From the IMG/VR virus record IMGVR_UViG_2541047885_000001: 21,692 bases of DNA; one strand, 5' to 3'. The notes beneath the pieces are model-generated. The model had not been told where the DNA came from. It made no database searches and saw only the letters and a list, made by a program, of their open reading frames with translations. Below are positions 152-21,692 of the stretch, piece after piece (the first letter of the stretch is position 1; every line of letters starts with the position of its first letter). The DNA is from a virus (Duplodnaviria > Heunggongvirae > Uroviricota > Caudoviricetes). Position numbers and translations under genes: made by a program.

Positions 152-331
152 ATGCGAAACGAAAAATTGCAGATGCGTAGAGCGCAAGCTGCCGCAAGAC
201 GTTCTTTCAATGGAAGCGTAGAGTACGTAAAAGTTACTATGACAAAAGATCACGCAAGTCGCGTATCCCGCGCTTTCTTTGATTCTCGTAACAATAAGGA
301 AAATTATGAGTTCGTCTGCGTCGCAGAATGA
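152..331 (+). CDS. Candidate small basic protein (59 aa), first gene of a possible two-gene cargo module; below the ORF-track length cutoff
   Basis: ATG at 152 with GAGGT 8 nt upstream; open frame to TGA at 329..331; overlaps the start of the downstream ORF by 26 nt in another frame. Arg/Lys-rich translation (MRNEKLQMRRAQAAARR...). Confidence 0.25.
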   Translation: MRNEKLQMRRAQAAARRSFNGSVEYVKVTMTKDHASRVSRAFFDSRNNKENYEFVCVAE

Positions 332-851
332 TAAAAATCAAATTGTCAGATATAAGGGTCGAGTATTGCATACGCAAAATTTCTCGGCCCTTTGTGCATC
401 TGATCTTGAGCTGAAGAAAGTATCTGATGCCTTTACCCAGTATTGGAAAACGGGATACCATCCATCTCTTGGTAAAGATGCTGCATTTGCTCGTCCGACA
501 GAAATGCTTAAACTAAATGTCAGGCATACTCATGTCGATAACCAAGACTATATTCCAGAAGATAGTGATAAAAAACACACTGGTAAAAAATCATCTTGGG
601 ATGCATGGAAAAATATAGCGTCTGTGCAAGTAAAATGCATACCAACAAGTGATTGCTTTTTAGTTTATTCGGTAAATCACAATCGTGATGCGCTGGTTAT
701 GTTTTTTGTTGACGCAGATGCCCACAACATAACTGAGCAAGAAGAGTTTAAAGAGGCAGCAATCACTATCAGTTATCAATTCTTTGAGAAAACAAAAACA
801 GAACCAATGCCTTTAGAAGAAGATCTTTTTTCTGATAAATGGAAGGAATAG
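306..851 (+). CDS. Hypothetical protein (181 aa), low-GC cargo gene; no family recognised
   Basis: ORF-track frame 279..851; ATG at 306 preceded by AAGGA at 296..300. Roughly 38% GC against about 50% in flanking phage genes. Followed directly by an intrinsic terminator. Confidence 0.6.
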   Translation: MSSSASQNDKNQIVRYKGRVLHTQNFSALCASDLELKKVSDAFTQYWKTGYHPSLGKDAAFARPTEMLKLNVRHTHVDNQDYIPEDSDKKHTGKKSSWDAWKNIASVQVKCIPTSDCFLVYSVNHNRDALVMFFVDADAHNITEQEEFKEAAITISYQFFEKTKTEPMPLEEDLFSDKWKE

Positions 852-943: not shown

Positions 944-1105
944 ATGAAAAAAGCATTTGCTGCACTGTTCGTTTTGTTGTCTCTGGTAGCGTCAACTCAG
1001 GCCTTTGCCGGTCGTTGTCAGCACGACAGCGACACTGCTGCTGACGGCTCACGCTGCGGTGGGCGTTCTGCGGATTCCCGCCCGGGCGGCGGTGGCATTC
1101 GTTAA
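944..1105 (+). CDS. Possible small secreted peptide (53 aa) with a signal-peptide-like N-terminus
   Basis: ATG at 944 within ORF-track frame 839..1105; MKKAFAALFVLLSLVASTQAFA resembles a Sec signal with an AFA-G cleavage site. Weak RBS; Gly/Arg-rich low-complexity tail. Confidence 0.25.
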   Translation: MKKAFAALFVLLSLVASTQAFAGRCQHDSDTAADGSRCGGRSADSRPGGGGIR

Positions 1106-1128
1106 AAACAAGGCCGCGAAAGCGGCCT
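1103..1128 (-). terminator. Intrinsic terminator for the arc-ant transcript
   Basis: AGGCCGC-GAAA-GCGGCCT hairpin (1111..1128); read on the minus strand it is followed by TTTTT. Confidence 0.5.
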
Positions 1129-1140
1129 GTGACATGTCAC
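1129..1140. repeat. 12-bp perfect palindrome GTGACATGTCAC, copy 1
   Basis: Identical 12-mer recurs at 19386..19397; both copies abut a terminator hairpin at a cargo boundary. Confidence 0.8.
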
Positions 1141-1154
1141 GATAGTTTCGTTTT

Positions 1155-1188
1155 GCACATCCCTGTGCCGCCGTTCTGTCAGAAGAAC
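1155..1188. repeat. Right arm of the 34-bp inverted repeat; overlaps the last codons and stop of ant
   Basis: Exact reverse complement of 1..34; the ant stop codon (1179..1181) lies inside the arm. Confidence 0.85.
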
Positions 1189-2123
1189 CCTGCTTTGTCG
1201 TTGATATACTCCGCGTGCGTCTGGATATCACGCAGGCATTTGCTCACACCGACGATGTAGCAGAACATGGTGGTCAGCTCCGCCGCCGCGCCCGATACAT
1301 CGTGCCCGTCGTCCTGCAACTGGTTTAGCAGATTCATCAGCAGTGAGTTCTCCGTCAGGCCGAGAACACCAGACGGAGAATGAATCAGGCTGCGGTAGCC
1401 GGGCTTCAGCGGATAACCATAACATTTTGTCTGTGTTTTAATTGCCTCACGAAGCGCATCTAACATCTTGACTGCCACTTCATCATTCTCTGATGCAGAT
1501 CCAGCAGGGAGATGCTCCCCTTCAAGCGGAACCCGAGCAACAAGAGACAACGCTTCGGCGAATTGATCTTCATCAATTTCTTTGTACGAACAGCCAAAAT
1601 GAGATTTCAGTGACGACCACATGGTGATCATCGCCTTAGCCTGTTTTTCTTTTGGCAGAGACTGACCGCGACTCATGACGAGTTGTTTAATGGCTTCCTG
1701 CTGTTCAGTGGTTATTTTACCCGGCAACGCCTTTTTAGCTTTGCGTGGGTTAACCACATGGCCTTTAGTCCAGTACTCGTAGAGCACATCGTCACACTCT
1801 TCCTGATACTGGATTACCTTGTCGCGGATTTCAGGACGGACTTTGTTAGGGCTGATGGTTTGCAACCAGCCAGCAAGTTTGCGAAGTGCCAAACAAATAA
1901 TCTCACGGCGCTGTTCATCCCCAGGAAGCTGCATTGTGATTTTCACAATGCAGGTTTTAAACCGCTGCTTCATTTTCGTAAACTGTGAAGCCCAATCCAT
2001 ACCCATGCCTTCAACGATAGGTTTCATTGGGGTGTACGGTTCTCCGTTGTGATTGACAACATAAAGTTCTGCGCCGTGGAATGGCACGTTGATAGTAGAT
2101 ACCGCTGTTGCTATACTCGTCAT
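1179..2123 (-). CDS. ant: Phage antirepressor (Ant-like), 314 aa
   Basis: Sits downstream of an Arc-like gene and divergent from an Mnt-like gene, as in P22 immI. N-terminal region looks like antirepressor N-domains; size close to P22 Ant (300 aa). Confidence 0.75.
   Translation of the reverse strand: MTSIATAVSTINVPFHGAELYVVNHNGEPYTPMKPIVEGMGMDWASQFTKMKQRFKTCIVKITMQLPGDEQRREIICLALRKLAGWLQTISPNKVRPEIRDKVIQYQEECDDVLYEYWTKGHVVNPRKAKKALPGKITTEQQEAIKQLVMSRGQSLPKEKQAKAMITMWSSLKSHFGCSYKEIDEDQFAEALSLVARVPLEGEHLPAGSASENDEVAVKMLDALREAIKTQTKCYGYPLKPGYRSLIHSPSGVLGLTENSLLMNLLNQLQDDGHDVSGAAAELTTMFCYIVGVSKCLRDIQTHAEYINDKAGFF
2089..2117 (+). promoter_or_regulatory. Sigma70-like promoter antisense to the ant 5' end (candidate Psar)
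   Basis: TTGATA (2089..2094), 17-bp spacer, TATACT (2112..2117); predicted start near 2124, opposite the ant start codon (2121..2123). Confidence 0.45.
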
Positions 2124-2197
2124 GTCGTTAATTCCTATACGTAGTTTTACGATACTGAAGCCCTGACGGTCTGGCCACCGTTGGGCTTCGCTGTTTT
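2124..2197 (+). ncRNA. Candidate sar-like antisense RNA (~70-75 nt) covering the ant start codon and RBS
   Basis: Runs from the antisense promoter to a plus-strand hairpin (GAAGCCC 2157..2163 paired with GGGCTTC 2183..2189, inner ACGGT/ACCGT stem) followed by a T-rich stretch. Complementary to the ant SD (2133..2136) and ATG. Architecture parallels P22 sar. Confidence 0.4.
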
Positions 2198-2363
2198 ATG
2201 CCACGCTATTCTTCTCACCAGTGAGTCCATACACTTTCCTCAGCTGATAGATAATCTCTGTATTGAACTTTCGGCATTCTTTTTCGCCATTTCTTTCAAT
2301 AGCTAACTTCACATCGTCCGGAAAACGAACTCGTCGTTGACACATCTCTTTTGCTTTTTGCAT
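2196..2363 (-). CDS. arc: Arc-like ribbon-helix-helix repressor (55 aa from ATG 2363; the ORF track extends to a TTG at 2399)
   Basis: ATG at 2363 with AAGGAG 7 nt upstream. Translation matches the Arc pattern (basic N-terminal beta strand, RVRFPDDV..., NTEIIYQL). Lies immediately upstream of ant. Confidence 0.8.
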   Translation of the reverse strand: MQKAKEMCQRRVRFPDDVKLAIERNGEKECRKFNTEIIYQLRKVYGLTGEKNSVA

Positions 2364-2483: not shown

Positions 2484-2915
2484 ATGAGCAGAGAAGATCC
2501 ACAACTAAGGATCAGACTTCCCGTTGAAGTAAAAGAAAAAATAGAAATTTCTGCAAAAGCCAATAAGCGATCAATGAACGCTGAAATAGTACAACGTCTT
2601 GACACCAGCTTTCTGAAAGATATTCATGAAGATGACGTAATTTCTGCTTATGAAGCAAAAATTATTGCAAACAATGCACGACATGAAATATTAAATATTA
2701 TTTTCAAAAGAACCTTTAATGAAATTAATAAGAAAATAACACTTGGACATACAAGTTTTTATATAAACCTTAATGACCTTGAACTGGAATCACTTGCAGA
2801 TAATGATTACCAGATCATCTTTGAAAAAACATTTAATAAGCTCAATGAACTAGGTTACATCATCTGTGAAAACTCATGGGATGCAGATGGTTTTGGAATT
2901 GAAATACCTGAATAG
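2484..2915 (+). CDS. mnt: Mnt-like RHH repressor (143 aa) with an unrecognised ~95-aa C-terminal domain
   Basis: ATG at 2484 with GGTGA 5 nt upstream. N-terminus (DPQLRIRLPVEVKEKIEISAKANKRSMNAEIVQRL) closely resembles the P22 Mnt DNA-binding domain as I recall it. C-terminal domain contains an internal repeat. About 30% GC. Confidence 0.8.
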   Translation: MSREDPQLRIRLPVEVKEKIEISAKANKRSMNAEIVQRLDTSFLKDIHEDDVISAYEAKIIANNARHEILNIIFKRTFNEINKKITLGHTSFYINLNDLELESLADNDYQIIFEKTFNKLNELGYIICENSWDADGFGIEIPE

Positions 2916-2947: not shown

Positions 2948-3005
2948 TTTAATACAATTGAAAAACGCCACATTACTGATGTATGTTACAACAAGGAGCG
3001 ATATT

Positions 3006-3569
3006 TTGAAAACCATATCTATATTAAAGGTTGCATTAGGCGTCGCTATTATTTTGACTCTCTCAATATTGTTTTATTTTTACCACAAAAAAACTGCTAT
3101 TGCTCTTGATGGTCACACGGCAAACTCATTTTTCTCAGAGTACATAGTGCCGCTATCAGGAAGCGGTATAACAAATAAATATACTGACTATGACATCAAA
3201 TATGGAATTGATGATGGGAAGACTATTGTATTACATGTAATCATTAAAAACCTAATGACAGTAAATAAAAATACAGACTTTAACGATAAAAATACAATAC
3301 ATCACAACAACAGCAAAACATTAATTTCTTATAGTAGCAACATCTATACGGATAAATACCTAAAATACATATCAGAAGATACAATAAAAGAAACCCGCGA
3401 AAAGTTAAAAAACATATATTGTGCATCCGGCAGTTTTCACAAATTATCGCCGCAAGAGCGTTTATTCTACGAAGCAAGAAAACAACGTAAGTCAATAATA
3501 TTACATTATTATGCTGATTCAGGGGAATCACTCATATTTAATATTGGGGTTTCCCCTGAATCATGCTAA
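3006..3569 (+). CDS. Hypothetical single-pass membrane protein (187 aa from TTG 3006; alternative ATG at 2979), low-GC cargo
   Basis: Perfect AAGGAG (2993..2998) 7 nt upstream of TTG 3006. N-terminal hydrophobic helix ISILKVALGVAIILTLSILFYFY followed by HKK. Same strand as and just downstream of mnt-like. Asn/Lys/Tyr/Ile-rich. Confidence 0.7.
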   Translation: MKTISILKVALGVAIILTLSILFYFYHKKTAIALDGHTANSFFSEYIVPLSGSGITNKYTDYDIKYGIDDGKTIVLHVIIKNLMTVNKNTDFNDKNTIHHNNSKTLISYSSNIYTDKYLKYISEDTIKETREKLKNIYCASGSFHKLSPQERLFYEARKQRKSIILHYYADSGESLIFNIGVSPESC

Positions 3570-3580
3570 AGGTGTTTAAC

Positions 3581-6500
3581 TCACCGCATCACCGGATCCA
3601 CCTGGTTTATTAGTGGCGCAATCCAGAACAGGTTATTGCCTGGTATCAGGGTTCGGGCATTATGCACAATACGATCACCGGCATCACCATTCAACACTCC
3701 TGCGGTCACATCAATGATGCTATCCGCAAGACCAAATGACGGTCCGAATAGAGATCCTACGAATCCACGACTGGCATACCTAGACTGTGTGCCAGTGCCA
3801 AATAAAGCCCCCAGCCCAACAGCACCACCAGTAGCCTTTTCAGCCATGTTGTTATATTCCATCAATGGTCCAAGAATACCGGATCTATCTATACCCTCAA
3901 GCACCAGTTTCTCTGGTGACCAGTCAACATTTTTCCCTTTCGATGCTTCTTTAAGCGCATAGACCAGTGAGCCAAGAGCAATCTGAAATGCAGTGCCATA
4001 ATAAAATTGCGCAGTTCCTTCCTGTAACCCACCAAGTAGCGCACGGTTGTATGAAGCCGTTGTGAATGATTTAAACTGAAATATCGTTCGCCCCATTGGA
4101 GTACTCGCCCATAAAGGTGTGTCACCAATACCGGGGGTGATGATAGTGTTATTAACGTCTTTCAGAACCGCTGACTGGAATACTCCGGCAACGTACTGAT
4201 CATCCCATTTATCAAAGTTACCAATGTGCCATCCATCAATTACCTCGCCATGTTTCCCGAACTCACTGCGAATACGTGCAGCCATATTGTCGTTGATACC
4301 GAGTTTTGCCAGGCGGCGTGCAGGAAATGCACCGGACAAAATACCGTCTGAAATAACCATTCCGTTCATGGATTTGTTTATGTCATTAAAGCGATCCATG
4401 AGTGTCAGCTTGCCGAAGGCATCAGTAATTCGCTCCATTCCGGCTTCGACTGCTGTTGTCCTGGAAGAGCTGTCAACAAGATCACCAATTGCACGAGAGC
4501 GTGAATGCAGTACAGTTTCCAGTCCGATACCCATCTTCAACATCTCTTCTTTGCTGGCCTTAAATGCCGGTGATTGGGATATCTGAGAAGCATAGCCTTT
4601 CATGGTGTTACGGAAACCATTAACCATAACCCCTCTGGCCAGATCTGGAATAGCTGATACTGTCATTCCACCGAGTTTGGTCGTGAAGTTCACATCCCGC
4701 AGAAAAGCGCCAGCACGAACAAAAAACGAAGACGGATCATCAGGCATCCCATATGTACCAACAAGACGATCGCGTAATGCTGTTATGTCTCTGAGATCAT
4801 TTGCTCTTGATTTTGAAAGTCTGGACTGTTCTTTCCGTAATTCCTTTTCGTACTTTCGCATTAATGAATCGAGTTTACCCTGAGGAACAACTTCACCATT
4901 GCTCTCATAACGTGCTTTCAGATTTGCCACACTTTCGTCATATTTCGCCTTTATTTTTTCAGGCACTTCCCGTAACAGACTGTCATATTCGTCCTCAATT
5001 AATTGCAGACGCTCAGTCATAGTTCGTTTGCCAAATGTTCTCGTCAACTCAATTTCTGCTGCCGCTTCACGGATATGACGTTGCAGCACGTAATTCACAT
5101 CACTTTCAAGATAATCCCTGATAAGACTATCAGGAACATTTAATGTTCTTTCTTTCGTACTACCTGCGGCTTTTACAGAAAATACGCTGACAAAATCCTG
5201 TGGAACCTTAGCACCAGTAATTTTATTAATTACGATATCTGCTGCAATTTCAGCATCCTCAGGAACCAGTGTTTTATTTCCTCTCGACCACCAGTCAACC
5301 AAAATACGTCGAAATTTATCGCGTTCACTGATTATTTTTCCAACTTTATATATGCGTGGGAAATAGCTTGCCTGGCCTAATGCTTTCAGTTCTTCATCTG
5401 GCGGCAATAAACCAAGCTTTTGCATTTCAACTTTCACCCGATTTAATACAGTTCGCATCGCCTGCGCCGTTTCCTGAACAACAGGATTAGCATGCACATC
5501 ACCGCTTCGCATAGCATTCCCAACCTGCTGACGAAATGAATCAAAACTCATGTCACCACCATCAGCTTTATACTTTGCGTATGCCTGTTTATTTCCGACA
5601 ACAACAGCAGCTTCTTCACGCTGCCATCCACGTGTACGGGTTTCTACAGCTACCGGTGTTTCAATCCCCCTTTCATTTCCTTTAAGGGTGAAATTATTTT
5701 CGGCTAACTCCAGCGTTGTTTTTCGCACTGTCCTGGACGGAGACTCCATTAACCTTGTCAAAGGAGTAAGATAGCTCCCTGCTTTCCATGCAGCCTTTCC
5801 AACCACCCCACCAGAAACAGGGGTTAAATCATCCAGAGTCGCTGTATCAATTTTCATAGCACCAACACTACCACCATCGGAAAGCGAAGCGGCAGCCCTG
5901 TCAGTCACTGATGTAATGCTCATATTATCAAGAGCATCAGCAACCTCACGTGTGGCTGCAGCCCGGACGGATGGCGAAAGCGCAACACCAGCACTGGCAA
6001 ACACGCCGCTCATCATCGCCCCCGCTGCAACGTGAGCGGCACTTTCACCCCATGAGCGTGTTATTTGCTGATTATTCAGTACAACCTCGCTTAATGCTGT
6101 ACCGGCAGCACCAATCGCAATCTGTGAGCCAATACGCGCCAGTGCCCCTCCTTGAGCACCGGGAATAAACATTGACGCAACAGTAACCGGATCCATTCCC
6201 GCAGCAATACTGGCAAGGGTTCCAACTACGCCAGCATCAGACAATAAACGTCTGTCTTCATTTTCATCATCTATCTGCTGCTTAATCCACGCCGTTTCCT
6301 CTGGTGATCGGGAATCTGCAAATTTCGCCCCCCAGTATTCATAACCGTGCAACTCATTTTTATCAGCATATGGGTTATAACCCTCGACCGGTTCAAACTG
6401 TCTGGCTGGGCGGAAAAAACCAGACAGAATATTGTTCTGTCGCATTGCAGCCCCCCATACGGAAGGCTCAGGTGGCAATGGCTCAGGATTAGCCCCTTCC

Positions 6501-16008: not shown

Positions 16009-16305
16009 TCACTCCTGTTCACTGGCCTCTTTGGCCATCTTCAAATACTGTTCAGGGCAATGCGCCATAACGCGCTGAAACAGTTCCAGCGCCAGATTGC
16101 GTTGCCCCTCATTAAATGCCATTGCCATAGCGTCCATCGGTGAGATAGCGGAAAACACACGGCCTTTCTCCAGCACCGACCAGACAACGCGACGCCCCTG
16201 TTCACTGCTCATGACAAAGCAAATGTCATCAATTTCACGCTGTGCCATGTCACGTTGCTTACGGGCGTTTTCTTCTTTCAGTTGATCGTCTTCGTAATCT
16301 GTCAT
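16009..16305 (-). CDS. Hypothetical small protein (98 aa) between portal and scaffold
   Basis: ATGA overlap with the portal stop (16302..16305); its stop is 2 nt before the scaffold ATG. Confidence 0.6.
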   Translation of the reverse strand: MTDYEDDQLKEENARKQRDMAQREIDDICFVMSSEQGRRVVWSVLEKGRVFSAISPMDAMAMAFNEGQRNLALELFQRVMAHCPEQYLKMAKEASEQE

Positions 16306-18222: not shown

Positions 18223-18300
18223 TTAAATTATTACCAATTTAACCACACATGATTTATTTATCGTAGGTAGTTGACATTTAACGCACAAATTATTACCTTT
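18223..18300. promoter_or_regulatory. AT-rich promoter-like region at the edge of the terL-portal insertion
   Basis: Plus strand: TTGACA (18271..18276), 17 bp, TACCTT. Minus strand: TTGTGC, 17 bp, TACGAT. Confidence 0.3.
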
Positions 18301-19011
18301 CAGGTAACCAAAGAGTTCATTCCGGTTACTAACCTGACTGGCTTGTCGTTAAATTGAACAGGTGGAGTGAGCTTTTATTTTGAGCAGTACGGCGTATGGC
18401 ACATGCGCCGATAGCGGTCTGGATACGTTTAAGGGGCACCCTCCCTTGCTCGGGCAAACGAACCAGGTAGCCGGAATGTGCAAGTCGAGCGGTTTTATTC
18501 CGCGCACGGGGATTCACCATCCCGGCGATCAGGTGTGACACCTCGGAAGAGACGAGGATGCAACAGGTAAGAGCATTGAGATTGATCGTCGTTCCTGGGC
18601 CCAAGGTCTGCTCGAAGTCAGTGCTCTTTCCGTTGTGGTGAATGCGCAGGCTGATGCGCACCCCGTGAACGTGGGGGAATGGGTAAGGCATAAGCCTGAG
18701 TTGGAAGACAAGCTGCGTGAATAGCCGGAAGTCAGGGTTACCCAACAAACTCAGTGAAAATCATGACGCATATCCTCTTGAGAGAGTGGCAGCTAACACT
18801 GAGCATATTTCAAGCCGGAGATCAGCACCGGCCACCACAACCCAATCACGTTAGGACCGTGATACGGCAGTACCAGGCAATGCGTGTAGCTTTGGCGGTG
18901 GCAGTTCTCCTTCTTCTGACCACCGCCCTTTTTACAGCAGAACGCCATTCCGATGACGTTGCGCTGTAAACCCTGCATCACCCGCCAAGGAAGGCACTCC
19001 GTTGATCATTC
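18300..19011 (+). ncRNA. ORF-poor ~700-nt region; candidate structured RNA or long regulatory leader (function unknown)
   Basis: No convincing ORF on either strand despite ~55% GC; bounded by a consensus -35 upstream and an intrinsic terminator placed 12 nt before the next RBS. Several GC-rich hairpins visible. Confidence 0.2.
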
Positions 19012-19048: not shown

Positions 19049-19381
19049 ATGAAAGAGAAGACTGCAGCTGAGCGCTATGCCGCAGCTATCAATGCCGCGA
19101 TGGCGATTGTAAACCTGCGTGAAGAGATTAAAGATCTCCTTGCAATTATCCATAACAACCTGACATGTACAGAGTTGCTTGGCGGTCAGTACAACGGTGA
19201 GGCGGTGAAGGAGGCATTTAAAAATGCCGAGGTAGGAATAATTCCAGCAAACTATGTCAAGGCTGAATGTGTGCTCCTAAAGGCACGAGTGAGTCTGCAT
19301 GAAGATCCTGGTAATCTCGGTCGAACTGCAATGCGTTACGTGATAGACGAGTCGAATGCCAAACACAATCTACCGAAATAA
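19049..19381 (+). CDS. Hypothetical protein (110 aa), cargo gene inserted between terL and portal on the opposite strand
   Basis: ATG at 19049 with AAGGTGA 5 nt upstream; in ORF-track frame 18953..19381; followed by the palindrome and a terminator. Confidence 0.7.
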   Translation: MKEKTAAERYAAAINAAMAIVNLREEIKDLLAIIHNNLTCTELLGGQYNGEAVKEAFKNAEVGIIPANYVKAECVLLKARVSLHEDPGNLGRTAMRYVIDESNAKHNLPK

Positions 19382-19385
19382 CACC

Positions 19386-19397
19386 GTGACATGTCAC
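19386..19397. repeat. 12-bp perfect palindrome GTGACATGTCAC, copy 2 (preceded by CACCGTG)
   Basis: Identical to 1129..1140; lies 5 nt after the stop of the 110-aa gene and just before a terminator hairpin. Confidence 0.8.
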
Positions 19398-19401
19398 AAA
19401 C

Positions 19402-19428
19402 AGCCAGCCTATGAGCTGGCTTTGTTTT
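19402..19428 (+). terminator. Terminator hairpin between the converging 110-aa gene and terL
   Basis: AGCCAGC-CTATGA-GCTGGCT stem-loop followed by TTGTTTT. Confidence 0.5.
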
Positions 19429-19471
19429 ATCCTCACCAGAGGATATCAACGATATTATCCCCACCAGCGGA

Positions 19472-20947
19472 TTAAGCATAGGGATCGTAATCTGTGATGG
19501 CCTTGCCTTGCTGGTTCTGCTGACCGGGAATTCGCAGACGCTTCGACACAGGGAACGCAAACGTCAGCAGTAGCGCATCGCCTTTACCCGGCGAACGCCC
19601 AAGCCGCTCCTTGATATCCTCCTTCGGTTCGATAACGATTTTACCGTCCACGCGAACTTTGTACTCTGCCGCCGACAGGTCGTCTGCAGTTTCCTGGTCA
19701 TCCAGCATGCCGCCCAGCCTCAGCCATGTCTTACATGAGTTGAACATCTCCCCACGCTTGTTAAGCATCTGCGGGTCAGTAGACGCGCCACCGAACGGAA
19801 CAAGTTGCCATGTACGACCCCAGCCGTCACCGATTGACTTCAAACCGGTTCCGTAACCGAAGTCGATGAACACCGCGTCAGCCTGATACTGGTCTTCAAA
19901 GTCAGCGATACGCTTCGCCATAATCAGATCGTCGGTAGTCTTGTTGCCAGTCCACAGCACCTTACTGTGTAGCCCCTGCCGCAGGTATATCACAGCGTCA
20001 TCAACGCCGGAGTATGCCGGGTCAACGCCGATTATCACCGGAGCATGTGCAACCTGCGCAGCGGTTACCACCAGTTTCATTGCCTCGTCAGTAAGACCGG
20101 TAGGGATAAACTGCAATTCAGATGCATCAGGGAATATGCCACGCACACGGATTTTAACGAAGTCGCTATCTTCCCCGTAGTCATCAACCCATTTCTGCAA
20201 CTGCTGTTTGTTGGTGCCTTCCACCGTCCTGCTGTCAATCTGCGCAGTTTTCCAGCGGTGTTTGTATTTGCGGAAACATTCACGGAAACGCCCGGTGTTA
20301 CGTGTAGGGTTTCCGAAAGCCACCCAGATAATCTCAGTGTCTTCGTCCGTTAGCGCACCCTCGGCAACTTCCCACACCAGATCCGCAATGTTCGACGCTT
20401 CATCAAATACCACGATGATGCGTTTACGCTCGTTGTGTAGTCCGGCGAATGCCTCAGTGTTGTGCTCAGACCAGGGGATTGCGTCAGCTCGCCACCGCTT
20501 GTCGTGCCCAGGGTCATTGCTGTACATCGCGGTAGCGGTACAGGTAAACCAGTCTTTCGTGATAGCAAGGTTTGACCACTTGATAATTTCCGGCCAGGTC
20601 TTCGTTCGTAGCTGGTTGTCGGTGTTGGCGGTCACCACGACCTTACAATCCTCGCAAGTGGACATGCCCCAGTTGATCAGCATTGAGATGAATGCGGATT
20701 TACCAATACCGTGACCAGAAGCACGTGCCAGCATAAGCGGCTGATATCGCGTCTCTGGATTCTGCAGGTGATCACGTATCTCTCGGAACGCATCAGCCTG
20801 CCACTGACGTGGGCCGGTGGCATGTGCCAGTTCAGTCCCCTCTTCCCCCCATGGGAACGCATAGAGGGCATAGCCAAGCGGATCGTGAGTGAACCCTGCA
20901 ATATCCTCGATTAACTGCTCTTCAGGAGATAACGCTGTATCTGTCAC
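19472..20947 (-). CDS. Terminase large subunit (491 aa)
   Basis: Walker A-like ARASGHGIGKS, Walker B-like IIVVFDEAS, and a C-terminal nuclease-like region (IIGVDPAYSG); ATGA overlap with the terS stop. Confidence 0.92.
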   Translation of the reverse strand: MTDTALSPEEQLIEDIAGFTHDPLGYALYAFPWGEEGTELAHATGPRQWQADAFREIRDHLQNPETRYQPLMLARASGHGIGKSAFISMLINWGMSTCEDCKVVVTANTDNQLRTKTWPEIIKWSNLAITKDWFTCTATAMYSNDPGHDKRWRADAIPWSEHNTEAFAGLHNERKRIIVVFDEASNIADLVWEVAEGALTDEDTEIIWVAFGNPTRNTGRFRECFRKYKHRWKTAQIDSRTVEGTNKQQLQKWVDDYGEDSDFVKIRVRGIFPDASELQFIPTGLTDEAMKLVVTAAQVAHAPVIIGVDPAYSGVDDAVIYLRQGLHSKVLWTGNKTTDDLIMAKRIADFEDQYQADAVFIDFGYGTGLKSIGDGWGRTWQLVPFGGASTDPQMLNKRGEMFNSCKTWLRLGGMLDDQETADDLSAAEYKVRVDGKIVIEPKEDIKERLGRSPGKGDALLLTFAFPVSKRLRIPGQQNQQGKAITDYDPYA

Positions 20948-21543
20948 TGATTGCCATCCTGACGTTCTTTCAGTCTCTTCCTGGCTGCCGCTATGCGATC
21001 AGCAATTGTCACATTCACATTAACATCCAGGCGTTCTTTGAATGCGTTGACGTCGACGTGCTTACCAATCAGTTCGAGGTTCTTCACCTTGTCAGGCCAT
21101 TTAATTTTTTTGAGGATGCCAACCAGCTCTTTCTCGTCTCCACGGCCTTCGAACATGTCGGCCAGTTCGAAACCTGTCAGGTACTGCCGCCAGACCTTAG
21201 GCCATTCCGAGACCGGCTTGATGCTCATATCGTCGTTGAGAATGTCAATCACGTCCATCTGGTCGATCTCCACCAGGCGCATGAGAACGTAATCAGCACT
21301 GACGCGCATTCGTTTGTTGCGCTCCTCCATCAACTCGGCAATCCGTTTCTGAATGCGTTCATCGCGCATCATGACACTGGCTTTAACTGCCGCTGTATTT
21401 GGGGAGAATCCTGCATTAATCGCAGCCTGAGTCTGGTTTTCAGGCGTTTTGATGTATGACTGGCAATAAGCCTCCTGCATTGCTGTTAGTGGCTTAAATT
21501 GCGTTGATTTGCGTTTATAGGTTTTAGGTTCAGCAGGCATCAT
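20944..21543 (-). CDS. Terminase small subunit (~199 aa from the ATG at 21543/21540; the ORF track extends to TTG 21588)
   Basis: Immediately upstream of and coupled to terL; N-terminal region has a terminase small subunit-like pattern (LTAMQEAYCQSYIKTPENQTQAAINAGFSP). GGTGG lies 5 nt before the second ATG. Confidence 0.8.
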   Translation of the reverse strand: MMPAEPKTYKRKSTQFKPLTAMQEAYCQSYIKTPENQTQAAINAGFSPNTAAVKASVMMRDERIQKRIAELMEERNKRMRVSADYVLMRLVEIDQMDVIDILNDDMSIKPVSEWPKVWRQYLTGFELADMFEGRGDEKELVGILKKIKWPDKVKNLELIGKHVDVNAFKERLDVNVNVTIADRIAAARKRLKERQDGNQ

Positions 21544-21550
21544 AACCACC

Positions 21551-21579
21551 GTGGTAATAGTTACCGTTGTGGTAATAGT
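21551..21579. repeat. Direct repeat GTGGTAATAGT x2 (7-bp spacer) in the terS 5' leader
   Basis: 11-mer at 21551..21561 and 21569..21579, between the upstream terminator and the probable terS start. Confidence 0.5.
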
Positions 21580-21584
21580 ACCAT

Positions 21585-21612
21585 GCAAAATAAAGCCGCC
21601 ATAGTTGGCGGC
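21585..21612 (-). terminator. Intrinsic terminator upstream of terS
   Basis: GCCGCCA-TAGT-TGGCGGC hairpin; on the minus strand it is followed by TTTATTTT. Confidence 0.5.
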
Positions 21613-21616
21613 AGTA

Positions 21617-21692
21617 TGAACCGCCCCGGGAATCCTGGAGACTAAACTTCCTGAGAAAGAGGTAAACAGGATGACTAAAAATACTCGTTTTT
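21617..21692 (+). mobile_element. Left end of an IS3-family insertion sequence (IS629-like), truncated by the window edge
   Basis: TGAACCGCCCCGGGAATCCTGGAG... matches my recollection of the IS629 left terminus; an orfA start (MTKNTRF) follows with RBS AGAGGT. Confidence 0.7.
21671..21692 (+). CDS. IS3-family transposase OrfA, first 7 codons only
   Basis: ATG at 21671; MTKNTRF matches the IS629-type OrfA N-terminus from memory. Confidence 0.65.

Follow-up and report, generated by a model that had tools for sequence, protein, structure and literature searches.

A candidate 14-bp regulator site at operon ends of Uetakevirus prophages and its linkage to a phrog_536-family gene

The 12-base palindrome GTGACATGTCAC occurs twice in the 21,692-nucleotide stretch of prophage DNA analysed here (the window), and forms the core of a 14-bp motif, Y-GTGAC-NN-GTCAC-R, which is probably the recognition site of a regulator of the phrog_536 family and would most likely serve to set read-through at terminators. 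This reading was reached by comparing sequences, and is supported by the conservation of the motif, its position, its exclusive linkage to one gene family, the strict 2-bp spacing between its arms and the half-site-like character of its flanks.

The palindrome and its surroundings in the window

The window belongs to an epsilon15/phiV10-like (Uetakevirus) prophage and shares 97.6% identity with Escherichia phage TL-2011b. Its late genes lie on the minus strand, with terS at ∼20944–21588 and the portal, head, tail and ejection genes extending down to position 3581. A low-GC cargo block (33% GC) lies between the last structural gene and the first copy of the palindrome, and is followed by a P22-type immI module. 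The features referred to below are these:

1101..1128, minus strand: intrinsic terminator 3' of copy 1 (terminator scan, RNA fold)
1129..1140: palindrome copy 1, end of the late operon, site (c) (exact match)
1179..2123, minus strand: ant, P22_AR_N antirepressor (Pfam PF10547, E = 9.6e-45; TL-2011b annotation)
2125–2192, plus strand: sar RNA of the immI module, antisense between arc and ant (Rfam RF00262, 45.2 bits)
2196–2363, minus strand: arc, immI module
2427–2399, minus strand: Pant-like promoter, immI module
2484–2915, plus strand: Arc-domain 'mnt-like' gene, immI module
19049..19381, plus strand: cargo gene of 110 aa, phrog_27507, function unknown (PHROG match 1e-74)
19386..19397: palindrome copy 2, after terL, site (b) (exact match)
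19402..19431, plus strand: intrinsic terminator 3' of copy 2, hairpin 19402–19421 plus T-run (terminator scan, fold)
19472..20947, minus strand: terL, start of the conserved backbone that continues through hairpin and palindrome
21595..21612, minus strand: terminator upstream of terS (comparison with uninterrupted relatives)
21618..21692, plus strand: end of an IS3-family element (from the sequence, which is found at 22,807 places in E. coli genomes, annotated as IS3 family transposase)

The repeated palindrome is real. Exact copies were found at 1129–1140 and 19386–19397, just where a preliminary description had placed them, and the identity between the two in fact covers 14 nt, TGTGACATGTCACG, in opposite orientations (1128–1141 on the plus strand for copy 1, 19385–19398 on the minus strand for copy 2). 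Copy 1 thus reads T-GTGACATGTCAC-G and copy 2 reads C-GTGACATGTCAC-A on the plus strand, both of them conforming to Y-GTGAC-NN-GTCAC-R with a centre of exactly 2 bp. The window contains six perfect 12-bp palindromes, compared with 5.3 expected, and two of the six are GTGACATGTCAC. Repetition of a 12-mer per se is commonplace, since 86 canonical 12-mers recur in the window; a recurring perfect 12-bp palindrome was seen in 2 of 300 dinucleotide shuffles. With this p value of ∼0.007, the support from within the window is moderate, and it is the comparative evidence that is decisive. A further copy with one mismatch, at 16242 within a conserved coding region, is probably due to chance.

Both copies stand next to G+C-rich stem-loops with U-tracts, which themselves qualify as intrinsic terminators. 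According to the preliminary description, each copy abuts the terminator hairpin of a plus-strand cargo gene. This is correct for copy 2, where the terminator (AGCCAGCCTATGAGCTGGCT plus TTGTTTTATC) begins 4 nt downstream of the palindrome on the plus (cargo) strand, and the stop codon of the cargo gene 19049–19381 lies 4 nt before it; read on the late strand, after terL, the same hairpin has only a weak U-tract (GUUUGUG). It does not hold for copy 1. The T-run of the G+C hairpin at 1111–1128 is on the minus strand, and the plus-strand cargo gene has only an A-run before the hairpin, so that this is the terminator of the ant/late operon rather than that of the cargo gene. Its stem-loop (1128–1111, AGGCCGCTTTCGCGGCCT) directly abuts the palindrome and is followed by the tail TGTTTTTAAC, which contains TGTTTTT; the last late-strand gene before it is ant, the stop codon of which lies 38 nt upstream of the palindrome. 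Relatives retain this hairpin beside the palindrome. Read along the strand carrying the U-tract, both copies come after a gene stop and before the hairpin and its U-tract. The palindrome is not part of the terminator stems and pairs inconsistently in the folds, and it is invariant whilst the hairpin sequences vary among sites and phages.

The detection of sar RNA means that the window prophage has a complete P22-type immI (mnt-like gene, Pant, arc, sar and ant), a module which is absent from phiV10 and epsilon15. The Pant region (2370–2445) has inverted repeats of its own, CCCCAC-C-GTGGGG at ∼2379–2391 and CACACCGTG / CACACGGTG at ∼2404–2412 and ∼2430–2438. These repeats, probably Arc/Mnt-type operators, have no relation to the 12-mer. 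Another palindrome, TTACC-N5-GGTAA, is also dispersed over the window, at 77–91, 18293–18307, 21543–21557 and 21561–21575 (four copies, 0.39 expected), upstream of terS and of the portal operon. Its sequence agrees with the sites that the epsilon15 record labels 'repressor' (ATTACC-N5-GGTAAT), and its placement suggests direct control of each late unit by the prophage repressor.

Fixed sites and a linked regulator gene

The palindrome is perfect at three syntenic places in epsilon15, phiV10, Tyrion, SPN1S and ∼80 metagenomic relatives, with two or three copies per 40-kb genome. The genomes compared are ∼78–82% identical in conserved genes and the flanks of the sites cannot be aligned, yet the palindrome is still perfect. 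Site (a) overlaps the TGA stop codon of a 113-aa regulator gene, the last early-right gene, just upstream of terS; in uninterrupted relatives it lies 23–45 nt upstream of the strong terminator that precedes terS. Site (b), copy 2 of the window, comes just after the terL hairpin, and site (c), copy 1, just before the terminator that ends the late operon. At all three the order on the U-tract strand is gene stop, palindrome, intrinsic terminator. Perfect copies in named phages are located as follows:

epsilon15: 2142 (b), 19517 (c) and 39612
phiV10: 2262 (b) and 19493 (c)
Tyrion: 2702 (b) and 20377 (c)
SPN1S: 2174 (b) and 19662 (c)
TL-2011b: 32282 (c)

At the Rz end of SPN1S there is a one-mismatch copy that has not been conserved among relatives. 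In the curated epsilon15 and phiV10 records, the terminators beside the sites are annotated, as are other binding sites, whereas the palindrome is not.

The regulator gene, with a site on or beside its stop codon, is found in TL-2011b, E. coli SY033 and ∼80 relatives, whilst the window ends in an insertion sequence before reaching it. At its right end the window runs into an IS3-family element, of which the terminal repeat and the opening codons (MTKNTRF) are present; the element begins at a distance of 4 nt from the stem of the terminator upstream of terS, between this terminator and the position of site (a). In E. coli SY033 (locus L214), site (a) is 37 nt beyond the point where the IS of the window begins. 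The third palindrome and the regulator gene are thus missing from the window because the IS3-family insertion intervenes, and in the window prophage this insertion may break the connection between the early-right operon and the late genes.

Two other roles were considered for the sites and dropped. The phiV10 record is cut inside a palindrome, between GTGA and CATGTTAC, as might be expected of a pac or cos end; the cut is there because the record ends at the stop codon of the last gene. GTGACA also resembles a −35 hexamer, and in the Salmonella-type site (a) TAAATT follows 17 nt downstream. Nothing comparable was seen at E. coli-type sites (a) or at sites (b) and (c), and no promoter is conserved around site (a) across lineages.

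The gene that ends in site (a) encodes a protein of ∼113 aa belonging to phrog_536 ('transcriptional regulator'), the family of N15 gp46 and epsilon15 gp49. This family is unnamed, its members being annotated as 'hypothetical protein' or 'transcriptional regulator'. The protein gave no sequence match in Pfam, NCBIfam or PDB and no match to a Q family. An AlphaFold2 model, computed from an alignment joining the enterobacterial and Vibrio clades, has a pLDDT of 80 and consists of an arginine-rich, basic N-terminal helix (5–18), an extended segment (19–29), helices at 30–40 and 52–74, and a C-terminal part with a Cys4 region and then a short helix. Foldseek and profile comparisons were negative. 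From the model, a ribbon-helix-helix (RHH) fold plus a Cys4 knuckle is plausible. A literature search on N15 gp46 and epsilon15 gp49 returned nothing relevant, and the 12-mer was not found in the literature searched, although an earlier mention in work on epsilon15 is not fully excluded.

Homologues of the regulator occur in the Pectobacterium myovirus ZF40 (67% identity), in N15 and phiKO2 (∼35%), in P2-like Yersinia phages and in many Vibrio and Aeromonas phages, and the motif accompanies them. ZF40 has exactly three copies of GTGACATGTCAC, one of them 3 nt after the regulator stop. N15 likewise has three, in the form GTGAC-TG/CA-GTCAC, and one of these falls on the gp46 stop with the register unchanged. 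In Vibrio phage K233 there are again three copies (GTGAC-NN-GTCAC), of which one precedes the terS start by 19 nt, and in a Yersinia phage two copies stand 33 bp apart. Of all TL-2011b open reading frames, the regulator alone has a homologue in each of these four phages. As an unbiased test, we took 80 viral loci picked by protein homology alone, 1.18 Mb in total. These contain 117 copies of GTGAC-NN-GTCAC, where 1.13 are expected (∼100-fold enrichment), with at least one copy in 78 of the 80 loci; in 43 of the 80, the TGA stop of the regulator coincides with nucleotides 2–4 of the motif, in a single register.

Only a centre of 2 bp is enriched, lengths of 0, 1 and 3–6 bp being at chance. The arms are invariant and the centre is variable (AT, CT, AC, TT, GG), with no covariation between the centre dinucleotide and the protein, and 95% of half-sites have a pyrimidine just outside the arm. 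At the level of sequence, invariant arms, a 2-bp centre and pyrimidine flanks are the signature of a symmetric dimer on double-stranded DNA. The motif is enriched outside open reading frames, and 16 of 138 sites lie 0–6 nt upstream of a terminator-like hairpin, compared with 37 of 4400 random positions. In ZF40, N15 and the Vibrio phages the sites are promoter-proximal or intragenic, and ZF40 and N15 each have a separate Q-like gene besides the regulator. The output of binding may therefore differ among lineages.

In species-representative bacterial genomes, matches to the 14-mer are mostly scattered over diverse taxa and the regulator gene accompanies only 5 of 120, so these matches are mostly chance occurrences and not a general host motif. 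With three fixed places per genome and ∼100-fold enrichment only around one regulator gene, the concern that the palindrome might be a scattered restriction or methylation site was refuted.

Two observations on individual phages may be added. The N15 copy at 28550–28561 (locus L210) lies ∼115 nt upstream of the terminator preceding the anti-repressor operon (genes 32–30), at about the expected position of the promoter of that operon, and gp46 might therefore regulate N15 anti-immunity. Some high-GC viral contigs (L107, L155, L193, L136 and L126) contain iteron-like arrays of GTCACGC / GTGACAT repeats around GTGACATGTCAC, in apparent coding regions of unrelated phages. These arrays may belong to an unrelated system that uses the same half-site.

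Cargo joints and alternative explanations

The palindrome marks cargo boundaries, as had been proposed. We surveyed site (b) in 80 metagenomic loci with 99–100% identical TerL. In ∼60 of the 80 the backbone is conserved from terL up to and including the palindrome, a perfect copy of which is found 78 nt after the terL stop. Cargo starts 0–7 nt past the palindrome and comprises at least seven sequences that are unrelated or strongly diverged, the stop codon of the cargo gene mostly being 4 nt from the palindrome. The cargo gene of the window (19049–19381), for which no Pfam, NCBIfam or PADLOC match was found, is one of these alternatives. Loci without site (b) have another hairpin and other cargo. 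One locus (L039, 5551–5955) carries two tandem cargo genes after terL, each followed by stop, 4 nt, GTGACATGTCAC and hairpin, like a cassette array. The same is seen at the end of the late operon, where the palindrome of site (c) lies 5 to 3532 nt from the last structural gene and is adjoined by the ends of many unrelated genes. Phages differ in what comes directly after site (a): some have nothing, others a small open reading frame or what a deletion left of it, and others again a UmuD-like gene with a LexA-box promoter. The 3' end of ant, the palindrome and the hairpin form one block that occurs in either orientation. The repeated motif thus stands at the 3' end of each exchangeable open reading frame; no integron integrase is annotated beside the sites in the records of related phages, and no promoter-like site was found within or next to the motif.

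Several cargo genes are of interest in their own right. The LexA-box insertion, with a near-consensus box (TACTGT-N8-ACAGTA), a promoter and a UmuD-like gene, is found directly after site (a) in several relatives (L087 18100–18560, Klebsiella phage ST11-OXA245phi3.2; also L091, L090, L119 and L200), and would place a cargo gene under SOS control where the early and late genes meet. In the window, the AT-rich open reading frame 2958–3569 (plus strand, 203 aa, phrog_8033) inside the 33% GC island has a weak TIR-like (ThsB) PADLOC match (E = 0.0036) and is a possible defence or counter-defence gene. The YafO-family toxin gene at 279–851 (plus strand, Pfam E = 1.2e-5), with a small open reading frame (152–331) upstream and a terminator (850–866) after it, looks like part of a cargo toxin–antitoxin pair. 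In relatives, a tRNA-Arg gene separates the site (b) cargo from the portal-side genes; ARAGORN found no tRNA in the window, and 18330–18950 may therefore be a remnant or a replacement.

Could the palindrome and hairpin primarily be a recombination linker or cassette joint, a site of cargo exchange or insertion comparable to PeSL motifs or integron attC? The backbone/cargo breakpoint falls exactly at the palindrome at sites (b) and (c), the genes inserted directly after site (a) differ (the small open reading frame, the LexA-box/UmuD-like unit and others), and the tandem array of L039 and the ant block in both orientations speak for exchange as well. However, a length of 12–14 bp is short for exchange by homology, the palindrome has no dedicated recombinase associated with it, and in phages of unrelated architecture the motif stays with one regulator gene and is often coding or promoter-proximal, with cargo absent. 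The strict spacing and pyrimidine flanks resemble protein half-sites, and any strongly conserved island amid variable genes will look like a breakpoint. We consider a primary role in recombination unlikely. Conservation between the variable genes is confined to islands made up of the site and its hairpin. Recombinant joints therefore fall at the palindrome, and exchange there is likely a consequence of this conservation; the suggestion of an insertion hotspot survives only as this likely by-product.

An element 5' of the terminator that acts in the 3' untranslated RNA (GUGACAUGUCAC), by forming a small hairpin or a self-pairing duplex or as a site of processing, would agree with the rule of stop codon, palindrome and U-tract terminator on the transcribed strand at sites (a), (b) and (c), and with the arginine-rich N-terminal helix of the regulator. 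Yet no palindrome-based structure is common to the folds of site (a) and the two window copies, and the palindrome forms a 4-bp stem at best. The arms are invariant and do not covary, whilst it is the putative loop that varies, and the flanks would pair as C..A and T..G, poor stem extenders, in about half of the sites. In other phages, moreover, the sites are often upstream of start codons or intragenic. An RNA element thus appears quite improbable, and the earlier idea of a 3'-end processing signal is disfavoured by the lack of a shared fold and by these flank pairs.

Binding by a host factor, for instance MatP, with the phage borrowing its site, is more doubtful again. The spacer is strictly 2 bp, and the 3-bp form of the MatP site, matS, is at chance in all sets (1, 2 and 0 occurrences compared with 0.46, 1.13 and 0.67 expected). 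Prophages of Escherichia and Salmonella avoid matS (PMC3603311). The motif tracks a phage gene rather than the host, being present also in phages of Vibrio, Pectobacterium and Yersinia, and the few species-representative matches that accompany the regulator gene (the 5 of 120 above) leave the remainder mostly to chance. Given the 2-bp centre and a matS form that is avoided or not enriched, the phage site is not matS and host MatP is an unlikely binder.

We give very little weight to the proposal that the Arc-like or Mnt-like repressors of the immI module use the palindrome as an operator. The window does carry such a module, with an Arc-domain protein, ant and sar RNA, and CACCGTG beside copy 2 resembles the Pant repeats. 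On the other hand, CACCGTG is absent from most site (b) cargo variants, and copy 1 is at the 3' end of ant, not at Pant (2399–2427). The half-site noted earlier at Pant proved uninformative, the GTGACA/TGTCAC hexamer being at chance frequency (13 in the window, 10.6 expected). The phages epsilon15, phiV10, Tyrion and SPN1S, without annotated arc, mnt or ant, keep all three copies. Of the repressor-site option put forward in the preliminary description, a protein-binding site in general is therefore retained and Arc/Mnt as the binders are not.

Possible mechanism and relation to known systems

We infer that the phrog_536-family regulator binds the palindromic sites, probably as a symmetric dimer via the RHH-like domain, with the basic helix before this domain and the Cys4 knuckle after it. 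The bound regulator, placed beside terminators, would most likely control read-through at operon ends; we favour this output because of the order of site and terminator at the three sites, the position of the regulator as the last early gene, and the absence of an annotated Q-like gene from Uetakevirus records. Antitermination would fit site (a), where it would take early-right transcription into terS and terL, and also site (c), where late transcription would continue into tail-fibre and lysis genes. In P22, late transcription runs across immI. At site (b), a roadblock or insulator fits better. By analogy with LacI at O3, the site on the stop codon of the regulator gene could provide feedback on the regulator mRNA, and looping between sites, as proposed for MatP, can also be envisaged.

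If the regulator does bind these sites, a protein annotated in hundreds of enterobacterial, Vibrio and other temperate phages, including the model phages epsilon15, phiV10 and N15, gains its cis partner. Late-gene control in Uetakevirus, where no Q or N is recognisable, would come down to three 14-bp sites and one small protein, and there would be a reason why morons and cargo genes are exchanged at identical joints, several such prophages being present in EHEC lineages. The near-identity to matS also raises the question of how one base pair of spacing keeps phage and host recognition apart.

[quoted passage not shown] The matS consensus, GTGAC-RNY-GTCAC (13 bp), is bound by E. coli MatP (PMC6907758), an RHH dimer plus an N-terminal helical domain (PMC12756933). 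The arms are identical to those of the phage motif, whereas the phage centre is 2 bp and not 3 (RNY). The presumed phage partner, ∼113 aa with a Cys4 knuckle, is without a four-helix bundle or coiled coil; hhalign between regulator and MatP was not significant, and there is no significant sequence similarity. Furthermore, the phage sites lie beside terminators in a 40-kb genome, and matS is spread over an 800-kb chromosomal domain. The logic of recognition may nevertheless be similar in the two cases.

A more far-reaching reading, to which we assign only an outside chance, is that the RHH-Cys4 protein and its sites, shorter by 1 bp, are the phage counterpart of MatP/matS and organise the genome at the boundaries of transcription units. 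The sites would be invisible to host MatP because of the missing base pair, and the three sites could be bridged or looped, or host SMC complexes excluded. Alternatively, the regulator loaded on its DNA site could be a switch that decides read-through at the downstream terminator, the late-gene switch of phages without Q. Such a system would be common to podo-, sipho- and myoviruses of enterobacteria and vibrios.

For the reading we prefer, a regulator that sets read-through, the RHH repressors (Arc and Mnt of P22 immI, CopG, MetJ, omega) provide a comparison as small dimers on short symmetric or repeated sites, and the fold class predicted for the regulator is the same. Unlike their operators, the phage sites are at the stop codon of the regulator gene and at operon ends instead of at the promoter of its own operon, and the regulator would have an additional Cys4 domain. 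The arrangement also recalls late-gene antitermination by lambda Q, with its binding element and tR', in that the early-right genes likewise end with the regulator, after which come a cis site, a strong terminator and the late (terminase) genes. It differs in that no promoter or sigma-dependent pause element is conserved beside the phage site, that extra copies lie at operon ends, and that the regulator has no similarity to Q families.

The PeSL (promoter-early stem-loop) motifs of T4-type phages flank variable open reading frames, and the moron concept comes from lambdoid phages. The phage motif is likewise short, conserved, accompanied by a terminator hairpin and situated beside variable, horizontally exchanged open reading frames, but, in contrast to PeSL, it has no promoter, is associated with the gene of a trans-acting regulator and is present at places without cargo as well. 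LacI binds O3 at the 3' end of lacI, with a roadblock, non-stop mRNA and tmRNA tagging as the result. The phage site is likewise on the 3' end of the regulator gene, on the stop codon itself in the 43 loci mentioned above; this likeness is one of position and purely by analogy. The CI-type operators of epsilon15 are likewise short palindromes dispersed over the late region, in the window too, yet they have another sequence and occupy promoter positions upstream of terS, the portal operon and the tail-fibre gene, not operon ends. A regulator with a palindromic operator is, then, an already known kind of arrangement. What is unusual here is the location of the site on the regulator's own stop codon and beside operon-end terminators, its spread over unrelated phages and its matS-like arms.
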